Below are positions 1 to 64,000 of a stretch of DNA of 64,000 nucleotides, one piece after another. The notes below the pieces were generated by a model. The model was not told the DNA's origin and made no database searches. It worked only from the letters and a program-made list of their open reading frames with translations. The stretch is taken from positions 32,001-96,000 of IMG/VR virus record IMGVR_UViG_3300031414_000001; one strand, 5' to 3'. Position 1 is the first letter of the stretch. Every line of letters starts with the position of its first letter. The stretch comes from a virus. Lineage: Duplodnaviria; Heunggongvirae; Uroviricota; Caudoviricetes. Both the position numbers and the translations under genes were made by a program.

Positions 1-40
1 AGGTAACGCCTTCGGTGTATACGAATAGTACAGTACTCAT
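1..40 (-). CDS. 5' end of a hypothetical protein running off the left edge (MSTVLFVYTEGVT...)
   Basis: ATG at 40, preceded by AGGAAAG SD and a canonical sigma70 promoter. Confidence 0.6.
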   Translation of the reverse strand, partial: MSTVLFVYTEGVT

Positions 41-96
41 TTTCTTTCCTTTTTGTGATTAACTTAAAACATGAATCTTCCGAATTCATGAGGGTG

Positions 97-125
97 ATTC
101 TACAGCAAGATTTCCGGCCTGTCAA
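97..125 (-). promoter_or_regulatory. Canonical sigma70 (early-type) promoter TTGACA-N17-TAGAAT
   Basis: Minus strand reads TTGACA ggccggaaatcttgctg TAGAAT; perfect -35 and 17-nt spacer. Confidence 0.75.
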
Positions 126-136
126 GGACAAAAACG

Positions 137-162
137 AAAAAAGGACGAAATTACGTCCTTTT
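137..162. terminator. Intrinsic terminator, AAGGACG-stem family
   Basis: aaaaaaggacg-aaatta-cgtcctttt at the end of ORF 151..945. Confidence 0.7.
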
Positions 163-945
163 AATATTCCAATGGAATTCTGTTACTGGTACGAACTGTT
201 CCGGCATCGGAGTTAAGTCATACATCGTTCCATTTCTAAATTTTAGTATATACGTTCCGCTGAGAATAGCAACTGCTTTCTGTAAAGATTGCATCGCTCG
301 TTCCTTCCAGAAGTTCTCATACGGCTCAGGGCAGTTTAAATGATCATACCTATACATGCCTAAGCTTGCCTGTATTAAACGCTGTGGAGCCTCGGTACGT
401 CCATCTATAAGACTAGCACCATGCTGTACGGAAGTCCAGCCAGGAATGCCAGGTAATGAACAAAATAAATCAAAGTCACGAATACTTACACACATCTCTG
501 AATCCACAATCTGATTGTGAATAACTGCTTCTTTAGCAGTCTTGTATAACTGGAAATCCATGTATACAGCTTTATTATCAATGATGTGTTGTAGTTCATC
601 ATATGTTGTCGGTACTGGTAGTTCAGGCATCATTTGTCCGAACACTTCCATACAGAAGATTCTCCACAATCCGTTAGTGAAAGCTATCTCTGATTCATAT
701 ACTTCATCAATAAGAAATCTACCTCTACGGTATTTCTCATTGATGAATATCTTACGTGCCAGATATGCTTTCAGAACCATTTCAGTACTTACATCATCTC
801 GATTAATATCATCGTAATTCTTTCCAATACGGTTAATCTCATAAGTTCTTACGTATAAACGCTTACTTAATCCTACATTACCAATTGAATGAATAGCTGT
901 CCTTGTACTTTCGTGTAGTGCTATCAACATATTATAAATTTTCAT
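151..945 (-). CDS. Hypothetical protein
   Basis: 264-aa ORF, start coupled to upstream stop. Confidence 0.75.
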   Translation of the reverse strand: MKIYNMLIALHESTRTAIHSIGNVGLSKRLYVRTYEINRIGKNYDDINRDDVSTEMVLKAYLARKIFINEKYRRGRFLIDEVYESEIAFTNGLWRIFCMEVFGQMMPELPVPTTYDELQHIIDNKAVYMDFQLYKTAKEAVIHNQIVDSEMCVSIRDFDLFCSLPGIPGWTSVQHGASLIDGRTEAPQRLIQASLGMYRYDHLNCPEPYENFWKERAMQSLQKAVAILSGTYILKFRNGTMYDLTPMPEQFVPVTEFHWNIKRT

Positions 946-1628
946 TATCTTAGTACTACGTATTTCCCGTTAATACCAACAATGTATTCATTGCCAGATC
1001 TTAATACATCATAGTTCTCACCTAGAACCGCACTCAAACGAGTACCGTCTAATGTCATATCTTCAGATAGTAAATCTTTAACATAAGTTTCGTTTACAAT
1101 ACCTGAACCTTTACTATAATGTAATTCCGTTCCATAAACACTTTTAATCTTGATGCTTTCATTTACAATTTCAACATTTACTGCTGCGAAGTCAAAGAAC
1201 TCTTTTAGTTCTTCTTCTGATACAAGTTCCATGTCATTTGTAATTTGATCAACATCTAAATCAATCGGGTCATTAACCCCGTACATCTGTAACTTCCAAC
1301 CTGGATTTGGGCAGATGTTTTCAATGCTTTTCATTAGCTCTATTAGTTTAGCAGGGAATTCACCATTACGTTCAAATTCAACAAATACTTGATAGCGTCC
1401 ATCAACGTTTGGTGTTTCGGCTGCTTCAGTATCAATTACGTCTACTGGTGAACGTTCAATGAATGAACTCAAATCATATGCTGCGTCAAAATTATCCAGT
1501 ACTTGAAATAGAACAACAATGTTCGAATCATCAATCTTTGGAGTATATTCATCAACGCTGATGATTGGATGTACTAAATCTTTCAGTACTAATGGTCTTA
1601 ATGCTCGTTCGTAAATTCTTTTAGTCAT
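945..1628 (-). CDS. Hypothetical phage protein (possible head-associated)
   Basis: 227-aa acidic ORF, coupled to neighbours, several L/I-x-E motifs. Confidence 0.7.
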   Translation of the reverse strand: MTKRIYERALRPLVLKDLVHPIISVDEYTPKIDDSNIVVLFQVLDNFDAAYDLSSFIERSPVDVIDTEAAETPNVDGRYQVFVEFERNGEFPAKLIELMKSIENICPNPGWKLQMYGVNDPIDLDVDQITNDMELVSEEELKEFFDFAAVNVEIVNESIKIKSVYGTELHYSKGSGIVNETYVKDLLSEDMTLDGTRLSAVLGENYDVLRSGNEYIVGINGKYVVLR

Positions 1629-2197
1629 TACATGCCCCCTTGTGGTTCGTCAAATTGAATATCATCAGAACCCGCATTTGGGTCTTGTTGATCTTGCTGT
1701 TCTGGTTGTTGTTCAGGAGCAGCAGTTTCTTCTTCATTCATAGAATTACTGTTGAAATCAGAAGCCATCAATTTGTATTCATCGAAACTTTCAGGGTTAA
1801 CTAAACGACGAGGAATTTGAAACTTCACTAACAGAATTGGTGTACGTTCATCTTTTGGTGTACTAAGGTTAGCAGCATTACCTAGAATGCTTTGCATATC
1901 ATCATTGCTGCGTGGGTGCTCAATTGGGTGAACTTCCCAATCTGGACGAACAAAAATCTTTGTTCCTTGTTTTTCGAATATCTTCGTTGCTACAGGATCT
2001 GGAAATGTGTCATGGGAAAATTTAAGAGTAATTTCTACCCAATATTTGGAGACATTCGGCCCCTCAACAATTTCACCATTAATCCAGTTCTTATAAGCAT
2101 ACAAATCCATGTTATCAAAATATTCTTCAACGCCAAGAAGAATGTCTAATAAACCGTCTTGATCGTAAAGATTTTGAATTGCTTGTGAACTATCCAT
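1628..2197 (-). CDS. Hypothetical phage protein
   Basis: 189-aa ORF, AAGGA SD, TAAATA at 2253-2258 upstream. Confidence 0.75.
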   Translation of the reverse strand: MDSSQAIQNLYDQDGLLDILLGVEEYFDNMDLYAYKNWINGEIVEGPNVSKYWVEITLKFSHDTFPDPVATKIFEKQGTKIFVRPDWEVHPIEHPRSNDDMQSILGNAANLSTPKDERTPILLVKFQIPRRLVNPESFDEYKLMASDFNSNSMNEEETAAPEQQPEQQDQQDPNAGSDDIQFDEPQGGM

Positions 2198-2275
2198 GTA
2201 TATCTTTCCTTTAAGGTTACTTCTCGGTATGAGAATCGTAATAATATAACCTTATTTACTAAACAGAAAAGGGGA

Positions 2276-2899
2276 TTACTCCCCTTTGATTGCTTCAGTA
2301 ATATGGAAGAACATTTGACCCCAATCGTTAACGAATTGATACCGTGGATCATCAGTACTGTCAGCGTTATGAGAACATTTCAGTACTAGAGTATCTAAAC
2401 CTAGACTTTGTGCTACATCAATATTAGCCAGATGATCATCAACTACAGTTACAATATCATACTGTTCTTTCAACTTAGCATAAGTACTGCGTTTAGATTG
2501 ATAGTTTTCAAGGATAATTACATCGTCGAAAATATCACCGAACACATTAATCAGATTTACCTTACGCAGTACTTCACCATGTCCGAACGTACCACTTTTC
2601 GTAACAACGATAAAGGCTACATCTGGATTTTCACGACGAAGTTCTTTCATTGCTGGAACCGTGTGAATATCCATAGGCTCAAGCAATCCAAATTCTACAC
2701 TGTAGAAGTTAAAGTTCTTAAGCAAATCCATTACCTGTTCACCATCACACTGTAACCAATCCTGAAGATTGTATTGCATTGGTTCGCCAACAGTTTCAAT
2801 ATCGTAGTATTTTTCGACGTACTTTTTAAAACCGCCTAGATGATTCAATAGAATCTCGTCACAATCTAAGATGACTGCTTTCTTTTTCTGGTTTGACAT
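2276..2899 (-). CDS. HAD-superfamily 5'(3')-deoxyribonucleotidase-like phosphatase
   Basis: N-terminal hhhDxD motif (VILDCDE), motif II IVVT, motif IV VVDD. Confidence 0.75.
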   Translation of the reverse strand: MSNQKKKAVILDCDEILLNHLGGFKKYVEKYYDIETVGEPMQYNLQDWLQCDGEQVMDLLKNFNFYSVEFGLLEPMDIHTVPAMKELRRENPDVAFIVVTKSGTFGHGEVLRKVNLINVFGDIFDDVIILENYQSKRSTYAKLKEQYDIVTVVDDHLANIDVAQSLGLDTLVLKCSHNADSTDDPRYQFVNDWGQMFFHITEAIKGE

Positions 2900-2910
2900 T
2901 ATCTTGTCCT

Positions 2911-3864
2911 TTACATTTGGTCGTTACAGATCAAATCCACTTCACATAGTAATGCTGATAGGTTCATCTCGCGGTCAGAAACGGAAGCTTGTTTTACAAC
3001 AGCATCACGAATCTTCACTTTGATCTTCATTTCTTTGATTTCGTCTTGTGTGAACATATCTACGTTACGGTACAGGAACGAAAAGAAGCCATCAATTTCA
3101 TCTTCTGGAATGTTCTGTACGATTTGTTCACGCATCTGACGAATATTACCAGCTTCAAGAGCATCAATAATAGCCGCACGATAACTGGCAGTACTATCAA
3201 TTGAGTCTTCAAGCTTAACTAGTTTACCTTTAACTACTGAGCTTTGCAACGTGTTTAAGGTTTTACGGAAATCAGGGAATGTACATTTAATGTACTTGTT
3301 CACCAAGTCTAGACTTTCTTCGGAATCCAGTTCTACACCTTCAGCCAATAGAATTTCAATAATACGAGTGGTGAAATCATCCTGATCATGTTTCTCGATT
3401 ACAATACTTTGTACACGAGACAAAATTGGTTTAAGAATTTTGTGTTGTTCATTTGATGTTAGAATAAAACGAGCATTCTCGTGATAATCTTCCATAATAC
3501 GTTTTAGTGAACCCTGAGCTTTCTGACCCATTTGTTCCATTTCTTCCAGTACGAAGATACGATAATCACCAAAAGCACTTAGACGAGCAGCAGCATCAAT
3601 CTTTTCACGTACTGCGTCCATACCTTCATCTGACATATTAAGAATTGTCACGTCTGAAGGATCTACGAATCCATTCTCTACTAGACCATTAATTAGTACT
3701 TTAATAGCTGTAGTTTTACCAGTACCTGCTGGACCAAAGAATCCAATATGTGGAATTTCACCAGTTTCGATCCACTCTAACATTTTCTGCTTGAATGCTG
3801 GATTCTTAAACACATATTCATCAACGGTTCCTGGGCGATACTTTTCTGTCCATAGAGTGGTCAT
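2911..3864 (-). CDS. 44: Clamp loader large subunit (T4 gp44/RFC-like AAA+)
   Basis: WTEKYRP RFC box, Walker A GPAGTGKTT, FILTSN, ILSR. Confidence 0.92.
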   Translation of the reverse strand: MTTLWTEKYRPGTVDEYVFKNPAFKQKMLEWIETGEIPHIGFFGPAGTGKTTAIKVLINGLVENGFVDPSDVTILNMSDEGMDAVREKIDAAARLSAFGDYRIFVLEEMEQMGQKAQGSLKRIMEDYHENARFILTSNEQHKILKPILSRVQSIVIEKHDQDDFTTRIIEILLAEGVELDSEESLDLVNKYIKCTFPDFRKTLNTLQSSVVKGKLVKLEDSIDSTASYRAAIIDALEAGNIRQMREQIVQNIPEDEIDGFFSFLYRNVDMFTQDEIKEMKIKVKIRDAVVKQASVSDREMNLSALLCEVDLICNDQM

Positions 3865-3866
3865 GC

Positions 3867-4163
3867 TTATTCCTTTTTAGTATTGTCTTCATTTATCCAT
3901 TCTGGATAAAGTAATGCTGTAAATAATTCTTCTGTCATTTCTAACTGGTCTAACAAGTAATCCAACGAGTTAGATTGGTTCGGATATTCAGTACCGAATC
4001 TTCTTGCTTCTGAGGCTGTAACCAACATGAATTTAAATTGATCTTCATCAACTGTATAAACTCTACCTTTATTCTTTGGTGTCTGGAAATATAATTTACC
4101 AGAAGGATTAGTACTTACCAGTTCTACATCATAGAAATTAAATTTTCCGTTTTCTACACTCAT
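3867..4163 (-). CDS. Hypothetical protein
   Basis: 98-aa ORF in operon orientation. Confidence 0.65.
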   Translation of the reverse strand: MSVENGKFNFYDVELVSTNPSGKLYFQTPKNKGRVYTVDEDQFKFMLVTASEARRFGTEYPNQSNSLDYLLDQLEMTEELFTALLYPEWINEDNTKKE

Positions 4164-4206
4164 AAAATTCCGACAAAAAGAAAGCCCTGACTAAGCAGGG
4201 CATAAA

Positions 4207-4527
4207 TTAGTATCCTAGACCTAAGAAGTCTGGACGTTCATCAGCAGCAGCGATAACGCCTTTCGGATAATCAACTAAATTTAAAGATACTTCATCAATA
4301 GTAATTGTTCTACTCCAACGACCATGAGCCACCAGAATCCAATCACCAGGTTTCAATTCAGTAATATCTTCACCAACGGAATATACCTTAGCCCAACGAC
4401 TATGTACACCACGTACAGTACCGTCATCATCACGAAGGACAATACCGGATTTTAATTTTTGTTCACCTGTATCTAAATCTGATACAAGGACTTTGCCTTT
4501 ACAAGCTGTAAGTACTTTCGACTCCAT
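4207..4527 (-). CDS. GroES-like co-chaperonin (copy 1)
   Basis: Start reassigned to MESKV (TAAGGA SD); mobile loop EQKLKSGIVL, VYSVG, LKPGDWIL. Confidence 0.8.
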   Translation of the reverse strand: MESKVLTACKGKVLVSDLDTGEQKLKSGIVLRDDDGTVRGVHSRWAKVYSVGEDITELKPGDWILVAHGRWSRTITIDEVSLNLVDYPKGVIAAADERPDFLGLGY

Positions 4528-4537
4528 TTGAATATCC

Positions 4538-4897
4538 TTATTCTTGATCAGCAGCGTCATCTTTAGTTTTCGCACGTTTAACTGGTGCTTTCTTTTCTTC
4601 GACTGGTTCTTGTGGTTCAATCTCGAATTGAGCATCATCGAAACCTGTATCTGCGAAGTCAAAAGTATCTGGAGCCATTGAATGGCTTTGATGCTCTGGA
4701 CTAATATCAGGTTTCTGTAGTTCACGTTCACGTTCAGCTAATAGATCTTCACGCTTCTTAATAACTGTGCCGCCTCGACCGATAATATCACCACGTGCGT
4801 TCATATTGGCATTGCCAATAGCTACACTATGTTGGTGCTGGAACTTCAACATTTCCATATCGATCTTCTGACCGCGATAGCTAGTGTGTTTCTTCAT
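4538..4897 (-). CDS. Hypothetical protein
   Basis: 119-aa ORF directly behind a TGAAAT-N17-TATAAT promoter. Confidence 0.7.
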   Translation of the reverse strand: MKKHTSYRGQKIDMEMLKFQHQHSVAIGNANMNARGDIIGRGGTVIKKREDLLAERERELQKPDISPEHQSHSMAPDTFDFADTGFDDAQFEIEPQEPVEEKKAPVKRAKTKDDAADQE

Positions 4898-4923
4898 AAA
4901 AATCCCTTTTCATTTGTAGGTAC

Positions 4924-4952
4924 ATTATACCATAAATTTTGTTACCATTTCA
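4924..4952 (-). promoter_or_regulatory. Phage middle-type promoter TGAAAT-N17-TATAAT
   Basis: Member of the 13-copy motif. Confidence 0.7.
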
Positions 4953-5460
4953 AAAATTCGTTAACATCTAAGTCGTATTTAATAGAATCTACCATGTGTA
5001 GTTCTATCAGGAATAGACAATAGCTGCTTACTGAACTTCCACGACCTAAACCCCAAAAGATATTATGTTCTTTTAGATAATCTACCAGCCATATCATACA
5101 GCGAAGCAGTTTAGTCATGTTATAGCTTTCATATAATCCCAATTCATACAGTACTCGTTCACGTTGAACATCAGTACTGCATAAATTAAGGAAGTAGTCT
5201 TCTAGATTGATTTTATCATAAGCTGAGTCATAACGCCATAGTTCATGATTCCTATCATGCTCTATAGTGTAATCTAGCATACGTTCTTCTAATCCGAACT
5301 TACGACAATTATCGTTGAACTTCAATCGTTCAGCTTCGTCTTGTTCGTTAAGCTGGATATAACTTATATCAGCACCGCAGTTGATAGCGTACACAACTGC
5401 GTTTAGATCTAAGCGAACGTCACCATCCTCGCTTATAGTTCGATTTCCTTGTACTTTCAT
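4942..5460 (-). CDS. DNA polymerase III alpha (DnaE)-like protein, N-terminal fragment
   Basis: RVLYEL...WGLGRGSSVSSY...VDSIKYDL..EFL matches DnaE RL..EL...GPGRGSGAGSL...[14 protein letters not shown]; start set at MKVQG. Confidence 0.8.
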   Translation of the reverse strand: MKVQGNRTISEDGDVRLDLNAVVYAINCGADISYIQLNEQDEAERLKFNDNCRKFGLEERMLDYTIEHDRNHELWRYDSAYDKINLEDYFLNLCSTDVQRERVLYELGLYESYNMTKLLRCMIWLVDYLKEHNIFWGLGRGSSVSSYCLFLIELHMVDSIKYDLDVNEFLKW

Positions 5461-5737
5461 TCTTTTTGTCTTCAGTTCCAGTGTTAATATAACTGTCCGA
5501 ATCAAATACAGTTTTGTTGTCTGCTTCTTTCTGTTGAGCTTCTAAGTCAGATTTAGCCTGACGAGTTCGAAGTTCTTCTTCGCATGAGCGAATAACAGAG
5601 AACATTTGCTGTATAATTTCGTACTGTACACCAGCAGAACGTGCTGATGAAATACGCATTGAGACTTCATTGATTTTATCATAAAGCTCTTGATTGCTTA
5701 AAGAAGAAGTATCAAAAAATGGATGGAACATACACAT
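5420..5737 (-). CDS. Hypothetical protein
   Basis: 105-aa helical ORF overlapping the dnaE-N start. Confidence 0.65.
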   Translation of the reverse strand: MCMFHPFFDTSSLSNQELYDKINEVSMRISSARSAGVQYEIIQQMFSVIRSCEEELRTRQAKSDLEAQQKEADNKTVFDSDSYINTGTEDKKNESTRKSNYKRGW

Positions 5738-5742
5738 CCCCC

Positions 5743-8112
5743 TTATTGAAATAGATTTGGCACTTTTAATGTTGCCGTAAAGTTTTCACGCTCATAACGA
5801 GCATTATCTTGAACATAGTAACTAAATTCTACCCCTGTAACTTCGAACTCATAATTCAATAACGCACCATGTTCATTATTCTGAATTAGTGTGTTGAAGA
5901 ATGTTTCACCCTGTCCTGGCTGTAAGTAAGCAACTACAATTCCAGGGAAGTATTCGGCTTGAATATTATCTTCGATATAAGGATGGTTCATGAAGCGTGG
6001 TACAGTATCTATCATTTCATCTGATAGACCACCAATAGCATCAACTACGATTCCACGGTTATTTAGATCTGTAGGGTCGGTTAGCAAGTTAACGGTATCT
6101 TCACCAAGAACTAGATATACGTTTTGACGTAATCCAAAGATTTCAGAAATGATTGAATTGCTATAATCAGTATACACAAGTGGATTCAAACTAAGACTTA
6201 CTTGAGTTCCTTCAGGGTGTACTTCTCTGTATAGTACATCATACAGTACGTTTCCTGCGTTGTCAAGGGCTGAACGAACTTTATAGTTACCAAGTACTAA
6301 ACGGAATGATCCGTCAGGCGTTGGAGCACCACTAGTTGTGTTCACTATACCATTACGAATGTTAGTAACAGTTTGTTTAATACCAGGCCAATTATGAGTT
6401 GTGTCCACATAGTTTTCTTTTAGAAGAATACGAGGAACTTTACGAACACCATAACGAGGATCAGAAGCACGATAGTACTGAGCTTGACTGAATGCTGTAG
6501 TACTGATGGTATTGAACCAAGTACGTTCCATTGTCAAAGATGGTTGAATATCAGCACTGATAAAGTTCTGACCGAAACCGCGAACAATTGTAATGTTGAA
6601 ACGTTGGGTTAATGATTTACCATTTTTTCCAGTTGCTACTACATCGAACTCTAATTTAATATCATCGTTCGCTGAGAAGTCTGTGCTTAAAGCATACGCA
6701 GTACCAATCATAAATCCATCAGCACTTAAATCTAATCCGTACTTACGAATATCATTCGGTGAAGTACTTTCATTGATTTCGTATGTGATTAAGTCAGAAC
6801 CACTGGCAACAATTTTAGGATACACAGTATGACCAAAATATTCACCTACGTGAATTGTACCTAAATTAGCATCAGTTTCAAATGAAATATCAGTACCAGT
6901 ATCCCCATTTAAGATAATACGGAATATTCTAGTATTGTTGATAATACCTGAACCTAATGATTCATTATAAATTCCTAAATCATACCATTTTGTAGCATCA
7001 TATGAAATTACCGGATTACCTTCAAATACATCTTCTGATACAACATAAGGATATATGGTAGTATCTTTTAATTGATATAAATGACCGCTGATTGGTACAT
7101 CATGAAAATCAGAAGTATCAGTTGGAGCAATCCAAGTTTGATAAGCACGGAAACGTTTACCGACATAATAAGCATCAGCTTCAGTACTGTAATAACGTTT
7201 AACTGAAACTACTCGAATTTTGATATAAGCATCAATTGGGTCTGAATCATAGAGCATAGTCTGAATAATCTGACCGTTGTTTCCATTGAATTTTAAGCCA
7301 GTATTAACTAAGTTGCCAGTACTGTCTTTAACAAGTAAAGGAACTTCTTCTAATAGACCATTACTTAAATCTGGAACTAAAATTGTTCCTGAACCAGTAA
7401 TATTAGTACTAGGTTTTTCTGAATCAAGAATAGTCAGTACTTCGTAAGCTGGCATGAATACATTAGTAGCACCGTTTATTGATTGACTTTTACCGAATGC
7501 TTGAACGAACAAGCGACTTTCAGCACCATAACCTACACCACCAATGGTGTATAGATTAGAACCATGAGTTGTTAATCCTGGTGTTAGCCAAATTTCGTTA
7601 GTGGTGTTATAATTCAAAGTACTTGAAGTTGTTCCGAGAACACCGCTCGGTAGCGTATTTGCTATTTGACCATCTAGCAACGTAATTACGTTGATACTGT
7701 CAATATTGAATGTTAATGATTCTGGACCATCCCATATTCCATCTTGTGGACATTCTATCTTAAAGTAATAAGCATCAATATAAGATACAGAACTTAAATC
7801 ATATGATTTAGTACTGAATTTTACTACATGCGTACCTTGAGTAGTGGATACTCCAGTTCCTGCGTTGCCAATTGGAACTAATGAAGAAGTACTTTCACCT
7901 ACACTAACTATAAAATCGCGTTCTTCTAAAGTCTCACCAGCACCGACGATGTTATAAGTAAATTCCAAGTACTGGTCATCAGTTAAAACATAAGTATTAT
8001 CGGTAGAAGTTGATTGACTCTTTTTCAAGCGTAGTCTAAAATAGGTGGTTTGTCCTTCTTGTATTGTATTGGTGTCAGCGATCAAATCCCATTGGGGTTC
8101 GAAGTTTGCCAT
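5743..8112 (-). CDS. Large virion structural protein (baseplate/tail-like, Ig-like beta repeats)
   Basis: T/S/G/N-rich beta-type sequence; GGAG SD before MANFEP; TAAATA at 8145-8150. Confidence 0.6.
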   Translation of the reverse strand: MANFEPQWDLIADTNTIQEGQTTYFRLRLKKSQSTSTDNTYVLTDDQYLEFTYNIVGAGETLEERDFIVSVGESTSSLVPIGNAGTGVSTTQGTHVVKFSTKSYDLSSVSYIDAYYFKIECPQDGIWDGPESLTFNIDSINVITLLDGQIANTLPSGVLGTTSSTLNYNTTNEIWLTPGLTTHGSNLYTIGGVGYGAESRLFVQAFGKSQSINGATNVFMPAYEVLTILDSEKPSTNITGSGTILVPDLSNGLLEEVPLLVKDSTGNLVNTGLKFNGNNGQIIQTMLYDSDPIDAYIKIRVVSVKRYYSTEADAYYVGKRFRAYQTWIAPTDTSDFHDVPISGHLYQLKDTTIYPYVVSEDVFEGNPVISYDATKWYDLGIYNESLGSGIINNTRIFRIILNGDTGTDISFETDANLGTIHVGEYFGHTVYPKIVASGSDLITYEINESTSPNDIRKYGLDLSADGFMIGTAYALSTDFSANDDIKLEFDVVATGKNGKSLTQRFNITIVRGFGQNFISADIQPSLTMERTWFNTISTTAFSQAQYYRASDPRYGVRKVPRILLKENYVDTTHNWPGIKQTVTNIRNGIVNTTSGAPTPDGSFRLVLGNYKVRSALDNAGNVLYDVLYREVHPEGTQVSLSLNPLVYTDYSNSIISEIFGLRQNVYLVLGEDTVNLLTDPTDLNNRGIVVDAIGGLSDEMIDTVPRFMNHPYIEDNIQAEYFPGIVVAYLQPGQGETFFNTLIQNNEHGALLNYEFEVTGVEFSYYVQDNARYERENFTATLKVPNLFQ

Positions 8113-8172
8113 ATCTAATCTCCAAAACATAAAAAGCTTTGTCGTATTTATTCTATGGGCTTAATTAAAAAT

Positions 8173-8193
8173 AAAGGACGCCGAAGCGTCCTT
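8173..8193 (-). terminator. Intrinsic terminator, AAGGACGC-stem family
   Basis: aaggacgc-cgaa-gcgtcctt (UUCG loop on the minus strand) after the topoisomerase gene. Confidence 0.75.
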
Positions 8194-8198
8194 AAAAA

Positions 8199-9614
8199 TT
8201 ATTCATCATCATCTTTATAGACGATGTTCATGTTACGAAGTTCTATGAGTTCTTCTTCGTAGATTTTCCAAATCTTGTCATGATTCTCTAGCAAATCATT
8301 GTATTCATCCATCTTCGCTAAGGCATCTTCAATTTCTTGATTTACCTTAACGTAGTTTTCTTTAGTCCAACGATACGCCGCGAAGTTCACGATGTTCTGT
8401 ACGTTTTCCTCGGATGCTTCAATTTCAGCATTCAATGAGGTTACAAAGTCAACAACTTCCGCACGGTTCTCAAATTCTTTAATCTTAACAGTCATGTCGT
8501 TTTCAAAACATTCTTTAACCAGAATCTTATAACGCACTTCTGCGTCAGCATCGGCTAGAAGTTTCTCATAACGCTTGATGTAGTATTTGAATCGGAACTC
8601 AACGAAGTCCGAGATTATATCTTGAACAGTGTTGTAACTTTTTACTTTTCCGTTTTCACCTAAAACATTGAGGGTATGTGCCAATTTTGTTGAAATGTCA
8701 AAATACTGAAGCACATCCATTTCTGACCATGAAGCCGAAAGACCACGTGGTAGTTTTATGGTAATGTCAACCTTACCAGAACTGTTATCATCGTAGCTAC
8801 GGATTTTACCTGAATCTTCCATTGCGATCAAGTCCTCAACGAATTTTTCTAGTTTCATACGTGGAGCTAGACCAGTAATACGAACAGTACTTGCATCGAT
8901 TACTTCAGCTTTACCGAAGAAAGTATACTTACCTTCGCCACGGTCTTCAACATAATCGTTCGCACCATAACTTGCGTAGTACGGCATCATTTCTAAAAGT
9001 TCTTCACCACGGATAGCACGGAGAGTGTTCTCAATGATTTCGTTCATACGATATGGGAAGATAAAACTTTTATACGCTGTCGCAGTACCATCAACGCCAA
9101 GTAGTGCTAATGGAATAATTGGTAGGAAGAACTTAGGTTCCATTGTAGTACCGTCATAGTTTTCCTGCATCGGTACAACATCCATATCACGAAGTACTAA
9201 AGCTTCGGTGAGTTTGGTTTTCTTCACATATGTATAACGTGGGCTTGCTGGTTCAGGGTTAACCTGAGTACCAAATCCACCACGCTTACCAATAAGTGGA
9301 TAGTTGTTCACAACTGGACTTGCTAGGTTCTGTAGAGTACCACTAGCAGAAGCATCACCATGAAGATAGATACCATCACTAATCATACGACCAGCACAAG
9401 ATACAGTTTTGATTTCACCACTTACTTTACTCAAAGTGAAGATAGCTTTACGCTGTGAGTTTTTGAAACCATCAATCCCAGGTAGAGCACGATCAAAAGT
9501 ACTCAAAGCATATTCTAGGGATGATTGGTTGATATAGTCTGAGCTACCATAGCCTAACAGAGTTAGAGCATTAGGTACAATCTCAGCTTGGGTTTTCTTT
9601 GTTGATTTACGCAT
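8199..9614 (-). CDS. 52: Type II topoisomerase, GyrA/ParC-like subunit (T4 gp52)
   Basis: RALPGIDGFK..QRK, YLHGDAS, catalytic ASPRYT, EPKFFLP. Confidence 0.93.
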   Translation of the reverse strand: MRKSTKKTQAEIVPNALTLLGYGSSDYINQSSLEYALSTFDRALPGIDGFKNSQRKAIFTLSKVSGEIKTVSCAGRMISDGIYLHGDASASGTLQNLASPVVNNYPLIGKRGGFGTQVNPEPASPRYTYVKKTKLTEALVLRDMDVVPMQENYDGTTMEPKFFLPIIPLALLGVDGTATAYKSFIFPYRMNEIIENTLRAIRGEELLEMMPYYASYGANDYVEDRGEGKYTFFGKAEVIDASTVRITGLAPRMKLEKFVEDLIAMEDSGKIRSYDDNSSGKVDITIKLPRGLSASWSEMDVLQYFDISTKLAHTLNVLGENGKVKSYNTVQDIISDFVEFRFKYYIKRYEKLLADADAEVRYKILVKECFENDMTVKIKEFENRAEVVDFVTSLNAEIEASEENVQNIVNFAAYRWTKENYVKVNQEIEDALAKMDEYNDLLENHDKIWKIYEEELIELRNMNIVYKDDDE

Positions 9615-9663
9615 TTCCTTTGCCTCTTTGCTAATACGGGGAACTCCTGTTCCCCACTAATAA

Positions 9664-11652
9664 TTATGCTGCTTCTTGCTCACGTGTCCAATCTTTACGG
9701 TCATCAGCACGTTCTTTGTTGAAGATCAAATCTAGGGTTTCTCCTAGTGATCCATCATCAGTAATCGCTACTGCTACACCATTGGATAGTGCGTCACGGA
9801 AGTTTGTTACTTCTAGAGTACCAAGACCTTTCGCACGTGTTGCTTTCCATCCTTTCCATTCTTCAGGATTGTATTCATGGACGTTATGACCATAGAAGTA
9901 CTTCGATTCTTTACCTTTCTCAAGGATGATGAACGGAGTCTTGAAGATATAAATGAATGGATCTTCTGGATCAGAGAATAACTCAGGCCAGAATTTGTAG
10001 AAGAAGTTAACCACAAGAGCACCGATGTTCTTACCATCTTCATCTTCGTCAGCACAAATGTATAACTTGCCGAAGTTCATGTTAGCACGAACGGCACGTT
10101 CACCTGGAACTAGATTCAATGATGCCATAATGTCATGTATCGCTGATGGTTTATCAGCAGTACCCATTAGGTCTTTAGTTTTCTCTTTACCGTTTACGTT
10201 CTGGATTTTACCACGTAGTGGAAGAATACCATGAATTTCAGAGTTCCTAGCAGCAGTCATTGAAGATACTGCGGAATCACCTTCTGCGATTAGTAGAATA
10301 CATTTAGAACGATCAGTACCGTTAGCATCACGCAATTTAGCAACTTTACCTTTCAGTAAACGTTTAGCCATCTTACGATCTTCATCGGCATCTTTCTTGT
10401 TTGTACGTTCAGCACAACGAGCATAAATTTCTTCTACCCAATCGTTATTTTTCTTAACGAGTTCAGCAAAGAATTCATCAGTCATTGCGTTCTGTACTGG
10501 TTTAATGACATTCTCATTAGTTAGCTTAGTTTTGATCTGAGAGTTGAATGTTGGAGTATTCATCTTAGTGACGTTATAAATCAACAAACCTTCTTCAATA
10601 TCAGAACGGTTAGGGGTCATTTTCTTTTGCTTAGATTTACGTTCTAGGGCTTTAATCACACCTAGTGCGAACTTCTGTTGGAAGGTATCTAAGTGAGTAC
10701 CACCTTCGAGGGATGGAGCGTTGTTAACAAGACCTTGCATATGTAGGTTCTTGCTAAGACCATCAACTACACCAGGGACAATATAGAAAGTACTGTCAAA
10801 GCCAGTTGTACCGTCTTCAACTTTCAATGTCATAGTGTTTTTGTGAGAAGCAAATAGACCTTTCTTCGGAACAACAATACGTTCACCATTCAAGAAAATC
10901 TTGTACGATGGGTTTGCTGCTGCGATTTCTTTCAGGATACTAAACACGAGTTCAAGTGGTAAAGTATGTACTTTGAATACTTCTTTACTGATTTTGAATC
11001 GTACTGTAGTACCAGTCTTTTCTGCTTGTACTTTACGAATACTTGGTTCATTAATTCCAAGTTCAGGGAACATTGCTGTACCTTCAGTGAACTTCTGAGT
11101 GAATTTATATGTACCATCATATTCAGAGTTGGCTTTATCGGTTTTGTACGGTTTACCTGCACGATGAATTTCGAGTTCAGCTTTCTCAGATACGATCATA
11201 ACTACTGAACCGCCTAAGCCGTTCATCCCGATAACGTTAGTACGTTCATCGTCGTTAAAGTTACGTCCAGTTTTCATTTCGGTTAGAACCATAGTACAGA
11301 CATGTTTCTGTGTTTCTGGTACATAGTCGATTGGAATACCACGACCGTTATCGCTAATTTCGAATTCAAGTTCATCTTGATTGTACTGGACTTTCAATAC
11401 TGGATCGCGTGTTCCAGCTTTAACGAATTCGTCCAATGAGTTATCCACGATTTCGCGGAAAGATGTTAGTAGGGCAGGAACCCAACCTAAGTTTTGCACG
11501 TTGAACCCTTCTTCTCCAAAAAGAAGTACAGGTTGTTCATGTTCTGATTTCGAACCCAAATACATTTCAGTACGGATACGAGCATGTTGATATTCAGTTA
11601 ATTGCTGTACACCATGTTCAGCGAGAACAGAACTTTTCTTTTCCTTTGCCAT
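9664..11652 (-). CDS. 39: Type II topoisomerase, GyrB/ParE-like subunit (gp39+gp60 in one ORF)
   Basis: GHKL EIVDNSLDE, DNGRGIP, GMNGLG; TOPRIM EGDSA, PLRGK, ADEDEDG, KGLG; start set at MAKEKK. Confidence 0.93.
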   Translation of the reverse strand: MAKEKKSSVLAEHGVQQLTEYQHARIRTEMYLGSKSEHEQPVLLFGEEGFNVQNLGWVPALLTSFREIVDNSLDEFVKAGTRDPVLKVQYNQDELEFEISDNGRGIPIDYVPETQKHVCTMVLTEMKTGRNFNDDERTNVIGMNGLGGSVVMIVSEKAELEIHRAGKPYKTDKANSEYDGTYKFTQKFTEGTAMFPELGINEPSIRKVQAEKTGTTVRFKISKEVFKVHTLPLELVFSILKEIAAANPSYKIFLNGERIVVPKKGLFASHKNTMTLKVEDGTTGFDSTFYIVPGVVDGLSKNLHMQGLVNNAPSLEGGTHLDTFQQKFALGVIKALERKSKQKKMTPNRSDIEEGLLIYNVTKMNTPTFNSQIKTKLTNENVIKPVQNAMTDEFFAELVKKNNDWVEEIYARCAERTNKKDADEDRKMAKRLLKGKVAKLRDANGTDRSKCILLIAEGDSAVSSMTAARNSEIHGILPLRGKIQNVNGKEKTKDLMGTADKPSAIHDIMASLNLVPGERAVRANMNFGKLYICADEDEDGKNIGALVVNFFYKFWPELFSDPEDPFIYIFKTPFIILEKGKESKYFYGHNVHEYNPEEWKGWKATRAKGLGTLEVTNFRDALSNGVAVAITDDGSLGETLDLIFNKERADDRKDWTREQEAA

Positions 11653-11683
11653 TTCAAATTCCTTTTTGTTTCTTAGCCATTGC

Positions 11684-11712
11684 ATTATAGCATAAATTGT
11701 TTCTTTGTTCCA
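11684..11712 (-). promoter_or_regulatory. Phage middle-type promoter TGGAAC-N17-TATAAT
   Basis: 13-copy motif, upstream of the topoisomerase genes. Confidence 0.75.
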
Positions 11713-11746
11713 AAAAAATAACGACGCATTTCTGCGTCGTCAGTAT

Positions 11747-12118
11747 TTATAGTAGAACCAGTATAGCAATTATCACGTAATGTGTCAAGTGGTGAGCCAT
11801 CTGGTCAATACCTAAGTACCACCAGAATTCTGGCTTACTGTGATCAGTACTGCGAGATGCCTCAACTTTGATTTTATCAACAATAAAATGTATTCCAAAA
11901 TCAAGAAGTGCTACCGCTATCACAACCGGAAGCGAAGCACCGACACATACGGCAATTAAGAACGTACCTAAAAGGTGCGTAGCCGCATGTGCTGTTAGTG
12001 GTAGTTCCCACCCTTCTTCTTTGAATTTACCTAACATGTAACGACCTTGGAAAAAGTAATCACATAGTAGATGTTTAATTTGGTACACGAATAGTAAGAT
12101 AAAAATCGTGGTTATCAT
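11747..12118 (-). CDS. DUF3307-like membrane protein
   Basis: HLLCDYFFQ, HFIVD, GIDQMAH motifs with hydrophobic segments. Confidence 0.75.
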   Translation of the reverse strand: MITTIFILLFVYQIKHLLCDYFFQGRYMLGKFKEEGWELPLTAHAATHLLGTFLIAVCVGASLPVVIAVALLDFGIHFIVDKIKVEASRSTDHSKPEFWWYLGIDQMAHHLTHYVIIAILVLL

Positions 12119-12127
12119 ATTTTGCCT

Positions 12128-14577
12128 TTATTTGACTAGTAAAAGTTGGAACTGCGATTGTGGCGAACCTTCTTCATCACTCCAGTACTTATGGAACTTC
12201 TCTGGTGTAGCCTGTTGTAGTACTTCACCATTAGCAACCACATATACTTTATGTGACTGAATTAGTCTTTGCCAAAATTTTATGGCATCGTCTGATTGTA
12301 GGCGTCCACTCAAAATTGGAGTACCTTCAACTTTAACAATATCCATGAACATTTGATAAACTACACCTTTCACCGAACGGCTAGAAGCTGTTACATCAAC
12401 GTTAAACCATCCTTCATCCACATGACCTTTAACTGTAGCAATTGCTTCTCCAGTATCATTGTCATATGCCATGTATCCATCATGACCACGATAAGTTGTC
12501 CACTCACCATGATCCTTAACTGGAGTCATGTTCTTTGGTGTATTAGCTTGTGCTTCCTTATCTACGTACACTTGTGGGTCCATTCCCATAAACGAATCAT
12601 ATTTAAGTGGCATTTCTTCTAGAACACCTTTATTAATTAGTTCTTGTTCGTCAGCATCATCCATATCATGTTCTAGTTCAGCATTTTGTACAATGTCTGC
12701 TAGACCACGCATACTTGATTCTGCCATAGCTGCTTCACCACGTTCTCTGCGTTTAGCAGTACGTTCTACATAATAAGCAAGTGATTCATCAAAATCAGAA
12801 ATAGATTCTGAGTACTGTAATGCTTTGTTTATGTGACGTGGTTCAACTTCTGGATTGTAATATCCATCAAAAACTTTAGTGAAAAATTCTTCAATTTCTT
12901 TTTCAGAACCAATGAAATTATTTTCACCATCATCAATATCAACAGTATACATTTTTCCTGATGTTTGGCAAATAATTTTTGCTTTTACATCTGCCATTTG
13001 AACCTGGAAGAATCCTTCATCTTGAACATAATCATCAAATTGAACTTTGCGAGTACTGTCATTATTAAAGAAACCTGCGTTCTCATTGATATTCTCAACT
13101 GCGAATAACATACCTTCCAAGTTAGCATCCGGTGCGTTTTCTTTTTCAATTATATCTTGTAATGTTTGAATACCACGCATGTTTCCAAGATAGTTAACTG
13201 GTAATTTAGCCATTTGCTCTTTAGTAAAATCTAAACGCATTGGCTCTCCACCATCTGGTTTAACAAGGATGAAATAATCATCTCTGTGACCATGACGGAA
13301 TACTAAATCATACGGTGTATAACCACCTTCAACTCGTAGTGTGAATTGTTCAGGATCATGAGCTTGACTTAGACCATGAATCTTTGGACGTTCACCGAAT
13401 TCACGCCATACTTTCAAATATAAATCACCCATTAAACTATCACCAGCTTCAGGATATTCTTGATCACGATTAACTTCATGTCCGTCATCAATATTCTTTT
13501 CAGTACTGTCAAATTCGTGATTATCTTCAGCGTGTAATTCATTATCATAGAAGTTACTAACTTCACGATAAATCAATTTCATTGCCTTATTAGCACGAGC
13601 ATCTTCTTTGTACTTTCTAAGTTCTTTTACTAGATTAGCTTGTGGGAATGATCTCAAAACATGTTGAATAGCTTTAGAAATATCTGCGTTCTTATTACCA
13701 GTTATTAAATCTGGATGTTCTTCAAGCCATTCATTAGCAAAGTTTGCTAAATCTTTAACTTGTGGACCAAATTCAATACCGCCACGATAGTACGCATCGG
13801 GATCTTGACCAGAAATATAATCAGGATGCTGATGTGCTTGTTGATCTTTTGGATTTAAATTTCTATTAACTACTTGTTGAATAGTATGTTGAAGTTCATG
13901 CTCAACTGTACCAATAGCATAATTCAAAGAACGAGCAACACCATCTAAATTAGCATTCTTAATATCTTCATAAGATGGAATACCTAAATCTAAATTATTT
14001 TGCGTTCCACGAACAGCACTACTACCACCTTTATCAAGGAACTGATTACTAATTTTCATCTTGATTGTAAGATTATTAATCAATTCTTTAGTACGAGGAT
14101 TCTTTTTCAAATTCTCTGGCAATGAGTTATAAATTTCATTAGCATCAATATTCAAATTAGTACTGCTATTGATGTATTTCTTTAAATCAGCAGGTGTTAG
14201 TACTGAAGCACCATACTTACGTTGGAATCTACGTAGAAAATTTAGTAGTGCTTCTGATTCAGATTCTCTACCATTTTTTTGTAATTCATGTTGTTTCATC
14301 ACACCCATAGTTAGAAGTACTGAACCAACATATTTTTGAACTTGTTTAAGTAATGTTTGTGGTACTTTAATAATACCAACACCACTAGCTTCATCAAGCT
14401 CTACTTCTTCTGAGACATGAGAAGGAAGATCAGAACCTTTCTTAAGGTTTCCTTCCTTCTCGTCAGCTTTATTAAAATCGTGAGCAACACTCATATCAAT
14501 ACCAGCATCTTTAGCAATGTCTGGATTATGTGCGGCAGCCGCCATTAAGTGTGCTTGTGCTTTGCTTTTACTTGGCA

Positions 14578-14578
<1 letters not shown>
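12128..14578 (-). CDS. Large multidomain putative internal virion protein: HExxH zincin-like domain plus C-terminal GNAT-like domain
   Basis: EHELQH motif; C-terminal KGVVYQMF...LSGRLQSDDAIKFWQRL; paralogous to 14578..16170. Confidence 0.55.
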
Positions 14579-16745
<2,167 letters not shown>

Positions 16746-16761
16746 TAATTAGGTCAGATTA

Positions 16762-21489: not shown

Positions 21490-22233
<744 letters not shown>

Positions 22234-42161: not shown

Positions 42162-42190
42162 ATTATAGCACAAAAATGCTACTCATTCCA
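42162..42190 (-). promoter_or_regulatory. Phage middle-type promoter TGGAAT-N17-TATAAT
   Basis: 13-copy motif. Confidence 0.75.
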
Positions 42191-43667
42191 TTTTTTCCCA
42201 ATCTTCCACTATCATTTCGACATATGGATACTGGACTTCTTTATAATAAGCTATACGTTCTCTAGAGTGCTTAGCACTGTACTTATTAGAACCGCATATA
42301 TCATAAATTTCAACATGGTCTTTATCTTCAGCACGGCGTAGACCACGACCGATACTTTGGATAGTACGAACAAAACTTTTTCCTGGCTCGATAAGTACTA
42401 CATTGTAAAGACGACTAATACTAATACCTGTACTCGCAACACCATAGGTAGCGATAAGTATCTTATTGTCAGCCCAACGTATCTCACCATAGGATGCTTC
42501 ACGGTCTTTCTTCTTAGTATCACCACGAACGAACTCAGACCTTGGGATACCTAAAGCATCACAAAGAAGTTCACCCGCCTCTAGCCTATCAACTAGTACT
42601 AGTGTGTTACCAGATTCCGCGATTGCTGCTATCAAAGTAGCAATATAGGACATTCGATCCTTATCAGTAACTAAGTACTTTAGTTCTTCCTGATAATTAC
42701 CAAATTTTAGAGCACTTTTTAGTTTAATGCAGTTCACATTACAAGTACTGAGAATCTTCTTATCCTGTAGCTCTTTCGCTGAGATTGTGTATATAACATC
42801 ACCGACATTACATTTAATCTTAGCTGCTAGTACTGGATCTTTAGGAATAGTACCTGTTAAACCCCAACGTAGGGGAATGTTACGCATTACTTGGCCTAGT
42901 ACTGCGTGTAATGCTTCTGCCGCACTTGTATGTGCTTCATCGACAATTACCGCAATTACACCATTAATGAAGTCATGAACATCTTGTTCAGTAAGTTCCA
43001 CTTCACCTTTCTTTGTCTTTTTCCACAAAGAGTTTAATGATTGCCAAGTTGTAATGGTATGCTGATGACCAAGTTCTTTCTTGTCACCATAGAATACACC
43101 AGCATCTAATCCGACCATTTCATAGTCATTATAGGTTTGCTGAACCAAGTCTTTGTTAGGTACGATTACAATACTACGACCGTACTTCTCAACTGACTTA
43201 GACATTGCTGCGGTGATTAGTGTTTTACCGGAGCTAGTACTTGCCAATAGTAATCCATGAGGATTCTGGAGGCAAGTGTTTACTGCGTTCACCTGATGTT
43301 CACGGAGGATAATTTTCTTACCTTCCATGTGATGACCCGCTGGGAATTCAACATAATCAAAAATATTTTCATCAATCGCATCGAACTCAAAATCGTGTTG
43401 AATACGTTGATCATCAATTTCGATCATTACATCATGTTTTTCAAGAATTGGAAGTAATTGATCCAACATGTGGTAGTGTGTACTACCACCCATATTCATA
43501 AAGTTTACCTTACCATCCCAACGACCCATACGACCCGCTGGGGTGAATTTCGCATATGGTAATACATAAGATACTTTACGAATCATTTCTTGACGAACAT
43601 TAGGGGCAAGCCCCTCAAATTTACAGTTAACTTCATCCTGAAGTATTAACTTACAAGTTCCACTCAT
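42183..43667 (-). CDS. uvsW: UvsW-like SF2 helicase
   Basis: WDGK, LREHQ, TSSGKT, DEAH, GLTGT, QSIGRGLR. Confidence 0.92.
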   Translation of the reverse strand: MSGTCKLILQDEVNCKFEGLAPNVRQEMIRKVSYVLPYAKFTPAGRMGRWDGKVNFMNMGGSTHYHMLDQLLPILEKHDVMIEIDDQRIQHDFEFDAIDENIFDYVEFPAGHHMEGKKIILREHQVNAVNTCLQNPHGLLLASTSSGKTLITAAMSKSVEKYGRSIVIVPNKDLVQQTYNDYEMVGLDAGVFYGDKKELGHQHTITTWQSLNSLWKKTKKGEVELTEQDVHDFINGVIAVIVDEAHTSAAEALHAVLGQVMRNIPLRWGLTGTIPKDPVLAAKIKCNVGDVIYTISAKELQDKKILSTCNVNCIKLKSALKFGNYQEELKYLVTDKDRMSYIATLIAAIAESGNTLVLVDRLEAGELLCDALGIPRSEFVRGDTKKKDREASYGEIRWADNKILIATYGVASTGISISRLYNVVLIEPGKSFVRTIQSIGRGLRRAEDKDHVEIYDICGSNKYSAKHSRERIAYYKEVQYPYVEMIVEDWEKME

Positions 43668-48893: not shown

Positions 48894-51234
<2,341 letters not shown>

Positions 51235-51244: not shown

Positions 51245-51270
51245 AAAAAGTACTGCCAATAGGCAGTACT
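51245..51270 (-). terminator. Hairpin/terminator with AGTACT in both arms
   Basis: agtactgcc-aata-ggcagtact followed by a T-run on the minus strand. Confidence 0.6.
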
Positions 51271-60845: not shown

Positions 60846-60878
60846 AAAAAAAAGCATCCTAACTCTCCGCTAGGATGC
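60846..60878 (-). terminator. Intrinsic terminator abutting the start site of a middle promoter
   Basis: Minus strand gcatccta-gcggagagt-taggatgc-T8. Confidence 0.7.
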
Positions 60879-60882
60879 CTAC

Positions 60883-60911
60883 ATTATAGCACAGGAATTT
60901 TACCCGTTTCA
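60883..60911 (-). promoter_or_regulatory. Phage middle-type promoter TGAAAC-N17-TATAAT
   Basis: 13-copy motif. Confidence 0.8.
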
Positions 60912-62931: not shown

Positions 62932-62973
62932 ATAAATCAGTCCTCACGTTTATATTATAGAGATATTTATGAA

Positions 62974-63285
62974 TTATTCCTGAGCTTCATCAAGATCATC
63001 TTTTACGCCATCTATCATATTGGCTGCGAGCTTTTTAGGCATTTTATACCACTCTTTACCAGTACCTTGAGTTGCGTTCATCTGCTTTAGACGTTTATTA
63101 ACTTCCTTTTCAGCAGCTTTAGCATCTTCAAATTGTACTTCATGATAAACTTCATAATCTCTAAACGGAGAACCAGTTTGATACGTACTTAATCTGGTTT
63201 TCATTTCTTCTTTTGACGTAAATCCAATCTTAACCCATTCAGGCCAAGCTTGATTCACGATTACGTAACAAATTTGATTAGCCAT
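62974..63285 (-). CDS. GIY-YIG-like (T5orf172/MUG113) domain protein
   Basis: YVI..WVKIG..RLSTYQTGSP..EKEV..EWY. Confidence 0.8.
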   Translation of the reverse strand: MANQICYVIVNQAWPEWVKIGFTSKEEMKTRLSTYQTGSPFRDYEVYHEVQFEDAKAAEKEVNKRLKQMNATQGTGKEWYKMPKKLAANMIDGVKDDLDEAQE

Positions 63286-63314
63286 AACATTTCCCCTCTA
63301 AATTAGTGGGGTAT

Positions 63315-63743
63315 TTAGCCTTTCAAAATCTGTACTTTTACGCCATGATTGCTTAAATTTTGTAGTACTGGATTAGAATTCAACATTTCTCGTACTGGAA
63401 CTGGTTGATTGAACTCAGTTACTTGTGTAGCACCAAAAGTAATTGGAGGTGAGTCATTAAGCATTGGAGCACCTGGATTTTCACGTGTTAGCTTACCTTG
63501 ATAGTACTGAATATATTGCTCATATGTCATTTCTTGAATATCTGAACACATAACATCGTTGACATAACGATTCATGTCATAGTAAACTGTTTCGAAGCCA
63601 CAACAAAGTACTCCTAAGTCTTCGATGTATCCAACCATCTTATACTCTTGGAATAGTACTTCGAATTTGCTGTATACACTACGGTGATATTCTTGTTTAG
63701 TGTTAAGATACACTACGACTATTGAATCTGGTTTAATGATCAT
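63315..63743 (-). CDS. Hypothetical protein
   Basis: Start MIIKP with GGAG SD, behind a middle-type promoter. Confidence 0.65.
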   Translation of the reverse strand: MIIKPDSIVVVYLNTKQEYHRSVYSKFEVLFQEYKMVGYIEDLGVLCCGFETVYYDMNRYVNDVMCSDIQEMTYEQYIQYYQGKLTRENPGAPMLNDSPPITFGATQVTEFNQPVPVREMLNSNPVLQNLSNHGVKVQILKG

Positions 63744-63758
63744 ATTATTGTCTCCATG

Positions 63759-63787
63759 ATTATAGCACAAAAGGTGCTCGCGTTTCA
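63759..63787 (-). promoter_or_regulatory. Phage middle-type promoter TGAAAC-N17-TATAAT
   Basis: 13-copy motif. Confidence 0.8.
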
Positions 63788-63825
63788 ACCAATATGCTAT
63801 TTACTTTATGGATTCCAGAAACGCG

Positions 63826-63850
63826 AAAAGGACGCATATAGCGTCCTTTT
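63826..63850 (-). terminator. Intrinsic terminator after the capsid gene, AAGGACGC-stem family
   Basis: aaaaggacgc-atata-gcgtcctttt. Confidence 0.8.
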
Positions 63851-63895
63851 CTTTGATAAAACATCAGATTTATTTAAATCTAAATGGTCACTTCA

Positions 63896-64000
63896 TTACA
63901 TGAAGGTTACGTTGCGGATAGCAATTTTGCTGTAGTAGTCAGCAGCGTTACCTAGAGATGAAGTACTGTCGGTTAGTTGTACGTAGCCATAACGAGTTAG
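63896..64000 (-). CDS. 23: C-terminus of the major capsid protein (gp23-like), partial
   Basis: Manual translation LTRYGYVQLTDSTSSLGNAADYYSKIAIRNVTFM*; TRYG motif, strong codon bias, terminator follows. Confidence 0.75.
   Translation of the reverse strand, partial: LTRYGYVQLTDSTSSLGNAADYYSKIAIRNVTFM

Follow-up and report, generated by a model that had tools for sequence, protein, structure and literature searches.

We analysed a 64,000-base stretch of viral DNA (hereafter the window), which comprises bases 32001–96000 of the 370,971-base virus record IMGVR_UViG_3300031414_000001 (a 371-kb genome), with respect to two short words: the palindrome AGTACT, which is dispersed over the whole of it, and GCGC, which is absent. 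The closest relatives of the window are Erwinia phage Kaldavass (92%) and phage XbC2 (91%) over 20 kb, followed by CBB, GAP32, BF and Yen9-04. The topoisomerase II large subunit gene (9664..11685, minus strand; 98% to Kaldavass) and the terminase large subunit gene (48894..50543, minus strand) together placed the phage, and the latter also served to choose sister lineages lacking the signature. To judge from its sequence, the source is a Rak2/GAP32-like jumbo myovirus, and the window is its core replication and structural region, with T4-like UvsX, UvsY and UvsW genes.

Within the window (1..64000), AGTACT occurs at 172 sites (2.7/kb), 8.1 times the 21.1 that base composition predicts. No hexamer is commoner in the window, and every 4-kb bin holds 6–16 sites. 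A first-pass annotation, made from the letters alone, had claimed a roughly ninefold enrichment at an assumed GC content of 35%; the true value is 37.3%. Its counts of 31 sites in the first 10 kb (32..9902) and seven in 42394..43241 are exact, every coordinate it listed is an AGTACT site, and the similar density it supposed elsewhere is seen throughout the bins. The seven sites lie inside a UvsW-like helicase gene (open reading frame 42183–43667, minus strand), and the hairpin it placed outside genes at 51249..51270 is a perfect 9-bp inverted repeat between two genes, with AGTACT in both arms. The enrichment continues genome-wide, with 1,166 sites (3.1/kb; mean interval ~320 bp), about five times the order-2 Markov expectation. 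Sites fall in all three codon phases (520/155/365), as the annotation had noted from single examples and as we checked on genome-wide counts, and 126 more lie outside called genes, the word being as frequent in noncoding DNA (3.6/kb vs 3.1/kb). Its flanks are also biased: CAGTACTG is the preferred form (17 in the window) and GAGTACTC the disfavoured one.

Since half of the coding sites are Ser-Thr pairs spelled AGT-ACT, codon or dicodon bias has to be weighed as a source of the enrichment. Such pairs are written AGT-ACT in 494 of 728 cases, and the dipeptides able to encode the word, ST, VL, QY and KY, all rank within the eight most over-represented. Yet 960 coding sites are observed where a per-gene synonymous shuffle yields 223, and stricter shuffles that also keep the next base or the codon box yield 274 and 419, respectively. 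After shuffling, AGTACT ranks first among all hexamers in each codon phase. An artefact of codon usage is refuted by these shuffles and contradicted by the noncoding density, and we give it practically no credence. The earlier view that a single codon-pair bias was unlikely is thus upheld, and the codon- and dicodon-preserving shuffles suggested with it leave the enrichment in place.

Conservation at synonymous positions, another check named at that stage, points the same way. Codon alignments with Kaldavass, XbC2 and CBB show that silent changes inside AGTACT are 2–3 times rarer than in the same codons outside it. When changes were polarised by parsimony on three genomes, silent losses numbered 92 against 392 expected (0.23x; range 0.04–0.55 over all positions and base changes), a deficit that is conservative because parsimony inflates common-to-rare changes; amino-acid-changing losses stood at 0.48x. 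Silent gains ran at 1.1x background (23 vs 20) and amino-acid-changing gains at 1.9x, the latter on small numbers. None of the one-off neighbours of the word is strongly depleted (0.83–1.5x in this genome group). Whatever the region or gene class, about 60% of the silent opportunities are realised. As an observation apart, one conserved membrane-protein gene (21520–22233, plus strand) offers five silent opportunities and holds no AGTACT.

These figures fit weak purifying selection on the whole word better than maintenance by one repair path. Sites will also look conserved if some drive keeps restoring their word, and a mismatch-repair or conversion bias of the Vsr kind that regenerates AGTACT might in principle produce the same loss deficit. 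We regard such a neutral drive as quite improbable: losses are held down whatever the position or base change, not just for one mismatch type, silent gains hardly exceed background, no neighbour is strongly depleted, and the sites show a regional gradient and even spacing (see below). A single Vsr-like path was rejected for want of a favoured mismatch route and of a depleted matching neighbour. The first-pass annotation had read the word as a selected or enzymatically generated self-mark. Its selected, HIP1-like half is sustained by the shuffles and the silent-loss deficit, whereas its enzymatic half is at odds with losses suppressed at all positions.

The second half of the signature, which the first-pass annotation missed, is the absence of GCGC: there are no sites in the window (1..64000), none in the 371-kb genome and none in any Rak2-like relative examined. 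Every Rak2-like phage examined combines zero GCGC with 2.4–3.9 AGTACT/kb genome-wide, and two of the motif-rich phages were isolated on Xanthomonas. The sister lineages represented by Vibrio 2.275, PA5oct, Atu_ph07 and XacN1 show neither AGTACT enrichment nor GCGC absence, and the same is true of T4 and T5 pieces. Most other GC-containing palindromic hexamers are absent from the window as well. Some 30 further 6-mers are near-absent genome-wide, many of them restriction sites (CAGCTG, CTGCAG, GGTACC, CGTACG, GATATC, CTCTTC, GACATC), a pattern of ordinary restriction avoidance implying that the phage DNA is not globally shielded. In Atu_ph07 (L045, 1–21338), CGAGGA is over-represented (21 vs 3.5) and is possibly another lineage-specific word. 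Literature searches, in which most subscription papers lay outside coverage, found no paper that describes AGTACT as an iterated word, the ban on GCGC or the link to prophages presented below, and nothing relevant on GCGC-directed host DNA degradation or late-sigma-dependent satellites.

Comparison of gene content recovered 32 genes present in all eight motif-rich genomes and in neither outgroup. Among the best conserved is a 243-aa orphan (orthologue of CBB_80), encoded outside the window at genome positions 245500–246231 on the minus strand. It is present in 19/19 complete motif-rich genomes and in no motif-poor genome or outgroup, host or prophage. In the Atlas, the named clusters closest to it are restriction enzymes (0.86–0.87, a lead only), and its structure is predicted with a pLDDT of 92. 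Foldseek on PDB gave no match to this model at E ≤ 0.001; the matches came from a wide structural aligner alone, whose ten best are all restriction endonucleases. They comprise ThaI (Z 8.1, root-mean-square deviation 4.6, 168 aligned) and HinP1I (Z 6.5), with NhoI, SfiI and EcoRV as further matches and HhaI (Z 5.1) at rank 14. E28, D48 and S59-x-K61 are invariant in 50 homologues, as is E88RR; distant homologues retain D48 in all cases and K61 in nearly all, the catalytic roles of E28, D48 and K61 being assigned by analogy. With modest Z-scores and many concordant matches, the model is that of a PD-(D/E)XK type II restriction endonuclease fold. Its specificity is read solely from the correlation with GCGC-free DNA, on which basis the protein probably cuts GCGC, destroying host DNA while sparing that of the phage. 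We propose that GCGC is banned because the phage encodes this restriction-endonuclease-like protein. Protection during host DNA degradation, a role once suggested for AGTACT, may be served mainly by the total absence of GCGC. An HNH nuclease of the early region (L540:1498–2496; genome 300549–301547, minus strand) is a second candidate for host DNA degradation and has homologues in all eight Rak2-like genomes; in the most distant of these, the homologue shares the HNH domain alone.

Distant homologues of the nuclease allow the two words to be viewed apart. Contig L545 has no GCGC (34 expected) and only 0.26 AGTACT/kb, and carries a different dispersed word, CAGGTACGAT, which is densest among small genes. 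Over positions 1–17000 this word occurs in both orientations among the small genes, whereas past position 4700 its 17 sites are all on the same strand. L543 likewise has no GCGC (~6 expected) and uses the strict form TCAGTACTGA, and L548 is also GCGC-free (~6 expected); a 1.6-kb contig with a still more distant homologue contains two GCGC. As L545, L543 and L548 are GCGC-free and the words of L545 and L543 differ, the nuclease appears to track the GCGC ban rather than AGTACT, and the iterated word appears to vary by phage lineage.

We next consider DNA methylation, since the first-pass annotation had offered a phage methyltransferase/repair system as one possible source of the word. The genome encodes C5 (PF00145) and N4/N6 (PF01555) methyltransferases, which we rejected as drivers because they are absent from motif-rich Munch, Kae01, XaC1 and two metagenomic genomes. 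A Dam-family adenine methyltransferase (PF05869; genome 249707–250252) behaves differently, being found in 19/19 complete motif-rich genomes and in no motif-poor ones. Profiles for PF02086 Dam, R.HinP1I (PF11463) and GIY-YIG have no match in this genome. Published native-versus-amplified nanopore sequencing of Kaldavass lists modified GATC, CCWGG and TGCAT and not AGTACT, and no AGTACT modification is reported for Hallingskeid (PMC11780129), although that inspection was manual and could have missed a motif. Kaldavass contains 1,114 AGTACT sites, three times its TGCAT count (352), and 454 CCWGG sites. An unmodified AGTACT is therefore the better reading, and the methyltransferase/repair target is not supported, given the nanopore data, the losses suppressed everywhere and the motif-rich relatives that lack the C5 and N4/N6 enzymes. 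Separately, TGCA is about fivefold depleted just in the genus-level group of this genome, Kaldavass and XbC2 (364–396 sites vs 1,500–2,150 in other Rak2-like phages); Kaldavass is reported to be modified at TGCAT, yet the N4/N6 methyltransferase also occurs in CBB and BF.

The PF05869 enzyme could instead form a restriction-modification pair with the nuclease, both targeting AGTACT, with methylated sites as the self-mark, in the manner of the link that Elhai drew between HIP and a methyltransferase. Both genes occur in 19/19 motif-rich genomes, and in Rak2-like phages they lie 3.5–7 kb apart on one strand. In L543 (9505–10729) the methyltransferase gene directly adjoins the restriction-enzyme-like gene, as in a restriction-modification pair, and the two are adjacent in L544 also; this adjacency is why the explanation stays alive. 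We nevertheless hold it to be improbable. The nanopore data for Kaldavass and Hallingskeid show no AGTACT modification, and lactococcal 936-phage Dam proteins are 49% identical to the PF05869 enzyme; a protein of this type, M.Phi93DAM, methylates GATC (PMC4190342). Further, L545 has both genes without AGTACT enrichment, and self-protection requires no enrichment of a word.

The arrangement of the sites bears on what might read them. Their local spacing is slightly more even than random (coefficient of variation 0.82–0.91, p 0.003–0.04), and their density rises toward one end of the genome: noncoding DNA of the terminal repeat (~259–281.8 kb of the record; 22,456 bp in CBB) holds 10 AGTACT/kb against 1.7–4.2 elsewhere, and in five genomes whose ends are defined, 8–13 sites fall within the first kb. 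AGTACT overlaps some sigma70-like promoters at recurrent offsets (~1.2–1.8x); a promoter role was rejected, as the overlap covers just a few percent of sites. Pooled over seven Rak2-like genomes, pairs at 18, 20 and 21 bp number 41, 53 and 64 against ~22 at neighbouring distances (2–3x), an excess that may stem from a spacing of two helical turns or from promoter elements that recur. Dense, even and palindromic sites might also serve as a phage-encoded nicking or recombination cue, acting in recombination-dependent replication as a Chi-like hot spot or as a primer site, and the T4-like UvsX/UvsY/UvsW genes of the window and the conserved early HNH nuclease would suit such a role. We assign it only a slim chance, because a study that detected nicks in another phage reported none in Kaldavass (PMC11780129) and because such a cue would not account for the noncoding peak at the end of the genome.

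A further candidate reader is the host division regulator SlmA, which the sites might recruit to block cell division. AGTACT forms the core of the SlmA site, GTGAGTACTCAC, and the likeness ends with that core. The 12-bp GTnAGTACTnAC with its GT/AC flanks occurs at chance (8 vs 4.8 here; 1–8 vs 3–5 in relatives), half-sites are rarer than expected, and no flank is used less often than the G/C of the SlmA consensus. With flanks that are not enriched, a far higher density and an opposite flank preference, we rejected identity with SlmA-binding sites and consider SlmA recruitment very improbable.

A pattern search recovered a second class of carriers of both marks: ~33-kb prophages of the lambda type in Leclercia, Enterobacter and Escherichia sp. 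These carry 1–5 AGTACT/kb, lack GCGC, show the same flank bias as the jumbo phages and have a sharp border to host DNA. CAGTACTG occurs 50 times in a 32.5-kb prophage against 60–128 times in a 4.6–5-Mb host genome, which is ~100-fold sparser and equals background. The prophages also share ATAAATA, the jumbo-type late promoter (PMC5259590), for which 34 of 56 sites in the present jumbo genome lie within 80 nt of a gene start. By a ribosome-site criterion (20–95 nt, applied equally to controls), ATAAATA precedes gene starts in 9/16 cases in a whole prophage against 18/109 for control words (p 1e-3), and in 35/87 cases over pooled prophages against ~15% for control 7-mers (p 1e-7). This was the second measure tried; the first, counting first open reading frame starts at 28–60 nt, was weak, with 1–2 of ~9 in most prophage loci. 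In the whole prophage, the genes so preceded encode the small terminase, capsid, tail fibre, major tail, distal tail, lysozyme and a GIY-YIG protein; at L359:13610–14572 the divergent lysozyme and GIY-YIG genes have overlapping ATAAATA promoters on opposite strands.

On a 32-kb prophage gene map, with several genes unannotated (one of them with a helicase-like N-terminus), nothing could be recognised as a repressor, antiterminator, sigma factor or initiator. Jumbo-like genes include the lysozyme (46–48%), an HNH gene and one tail fibre, whose protein (L467:18198–21053) is 50% identical over 950 aa to one of PBECO4 and would indicate gene exchange between prophages and jumbo phages. From promoter placement and gene content, the prophages read as helper-dependent satellites that would mimic the words of a jumbo helper, their late genes apparently under a helper-type promoter that is weak in two members.

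That two unrelated phage families with enterobacterial hosts share a word and its flank bias could also mean that a host (Enterobacterales) protein reads AGTACT and that each family arrived at the word on its own, much as lambdoid phages benefit from host words such as Chi. A phmmer search for a shared DNA-binding gene fits this idea, returning only lysozyme, HNH, terminase, tail fibre and sporadic accessory matches between the two families. We consider it unlikely, in that the word stands at background in the hosts, T4 and T5 lack it on the same hosts, related jumbo lineages use tighter or different words, the prophages look helper-dependent and two motif-rich phages came from Xanthomonas.

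Our preferred interpretation, to which we attach a probability of about 45%, is that AGTACT is an unmodified self-tag bound by a postulated phage protein and paired with GCGC-directed destruction of host DNA. Rak2-like jumbo phages would thus use a two-word sequence code. Through the banned word, the phage-encoded orphan nuclease would cut GCGC, so that host DNA is destroyed and GCGC-free phage DNA spared. Through the kept word, an unmodified (C)AGTACT(G) that weak purifying selection acting on the DNA itself maintains every ~320 bp, a sequence-specific DNA-binding protein encoded by the phage would load and mark the DNA as phage, and DNA so marked would be protected, organised or admitted to replication or transcription. 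Sites are concentrated at the genome end and terminal repeat, and by analogy with T5 that end might enter the cell first. The 33-kb prophages, apparently dependent on a jumbo/T4-type late sigma factor, would have copied both words to pass as self.

Several points weigh against this interpretation. The protein-binding tag, already among the first-pass suggestions, stays the best reading of the word, but no AGTACT reader was identified: when most of the 32 core genes specific to the clade were scanned against PHROG and Pfam, none matched a named DNA-binding protein. The motif-rich jumbo genomes form one clade, which makes the 19/19 co-occurrence of the nuclease non-independent, and the Dam-family methyltransferase fits equally well. 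The structural matches have modest Z-scores, and specificity does not follow from similarity of fold. The separation of nuclease and word rests on 19-kb and 8-kb contig pieces, for which a different host could also explain the different word, and the terminal-repeat peak is partly looser protein constraint (realised fraction 0.68 vs 0.61). As for the prophages, several unannotated genes could be unrecognised regulators. Dependence on a Rak2-like helper stays conjectural because T4-like phages, Vibrio 2.275 and PA5oct use ATAAATA as their late promoter too, because the sister prophage L465 (Atlantibacter) has it before virion genes (5/13) without either mark, and because it is weak in L531 and L537 (2/17 and 1/13). 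L465 may use a different T4-like helper. The broader proposition, that self and non-self are told apart by plain sequence through a GCGC-cutting nuclease, a coat or licence protein reading AGTACT or CAGGTACGAT, and complete-virion satellites mimicking both words and the late promoter, is offered tentatively and is, as a whole, rather unlikely.

Highly iterated palindromes have been without a known function for decades, and AGTACT, in cultured phages that grow on laboratory hosts, with candidate genes and a natural variant word, makes the question directly testable. The findings suggest a possible route by which a jumbo phage that forms no nucleus and has ordinary bases could destroy host DNA and not its own, and they point to jumbo-phage satellites of a kind not described before. 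In practical terms, genes inserted into Rak2-like phages may need to be GCGC-free.

Each part of this picture has a known counterpart. Like the phage satellites P4, PICI/cf-PICI and the Vibrio PLE, the 33-kb prophages are integrated, have no recognisable lytic switch, carry nucleases and seem to leave their late genes to helper control; they differ in encoding a complete siphovirus head, tail and lysis set, and their helper would be a lytic jumbo phage whose word usage is copied. Restriction-site avoidance is familiar, as are virus endonucleases that degrade host DNA, including T4 EndoII and the chlorovirus restriction-modification systems. The GCGC absence and the restriction-enzyme-fold gene would likewise give self/non-self cutting, with self spared by site absence rather than modification, and these systems leave an enriched word unexplained. 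The Neisseria DNA uptake sequence (DUS), the Haemophilus uptake signal sequence (USS) and Chi resemble AGTACT as genome-wide selected words that bend codon and amino-acid usage and are read unmodified by a protein. Those words, however, are non-palindromic, longer and bacterial, with known readers (ComP, RecBCD), whereas AGTACT is palindromic, 6 bp long and viral. The closest analogy, as the first-pass annotation had recognised, is HIP1 (GCGATCGC), the hyper-abundant short palindrome of cyanobacteria whose function is unexplained (Xu, Lawrence & Durand 2018, PMC5861425). AGTACT likewise is over-represented in all frames and in intergenic DNA and is conserved beyond codon constraint. It is not HIP1 proper, being a different word in an enterobacterial jumbo phage rather than a cyanobacterial chromosome, with a 6-bp core, ~5–8x enrichment as opposed to 15–300x, no cognate methylation found, a gradient toward the terminal repeat, a paired banned word and lineage-specific variants. 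What is new here is a nuclease-fold gene tied to a GCGC ban, together with satellite-like prophages that carry a jumbo-type late promoter.

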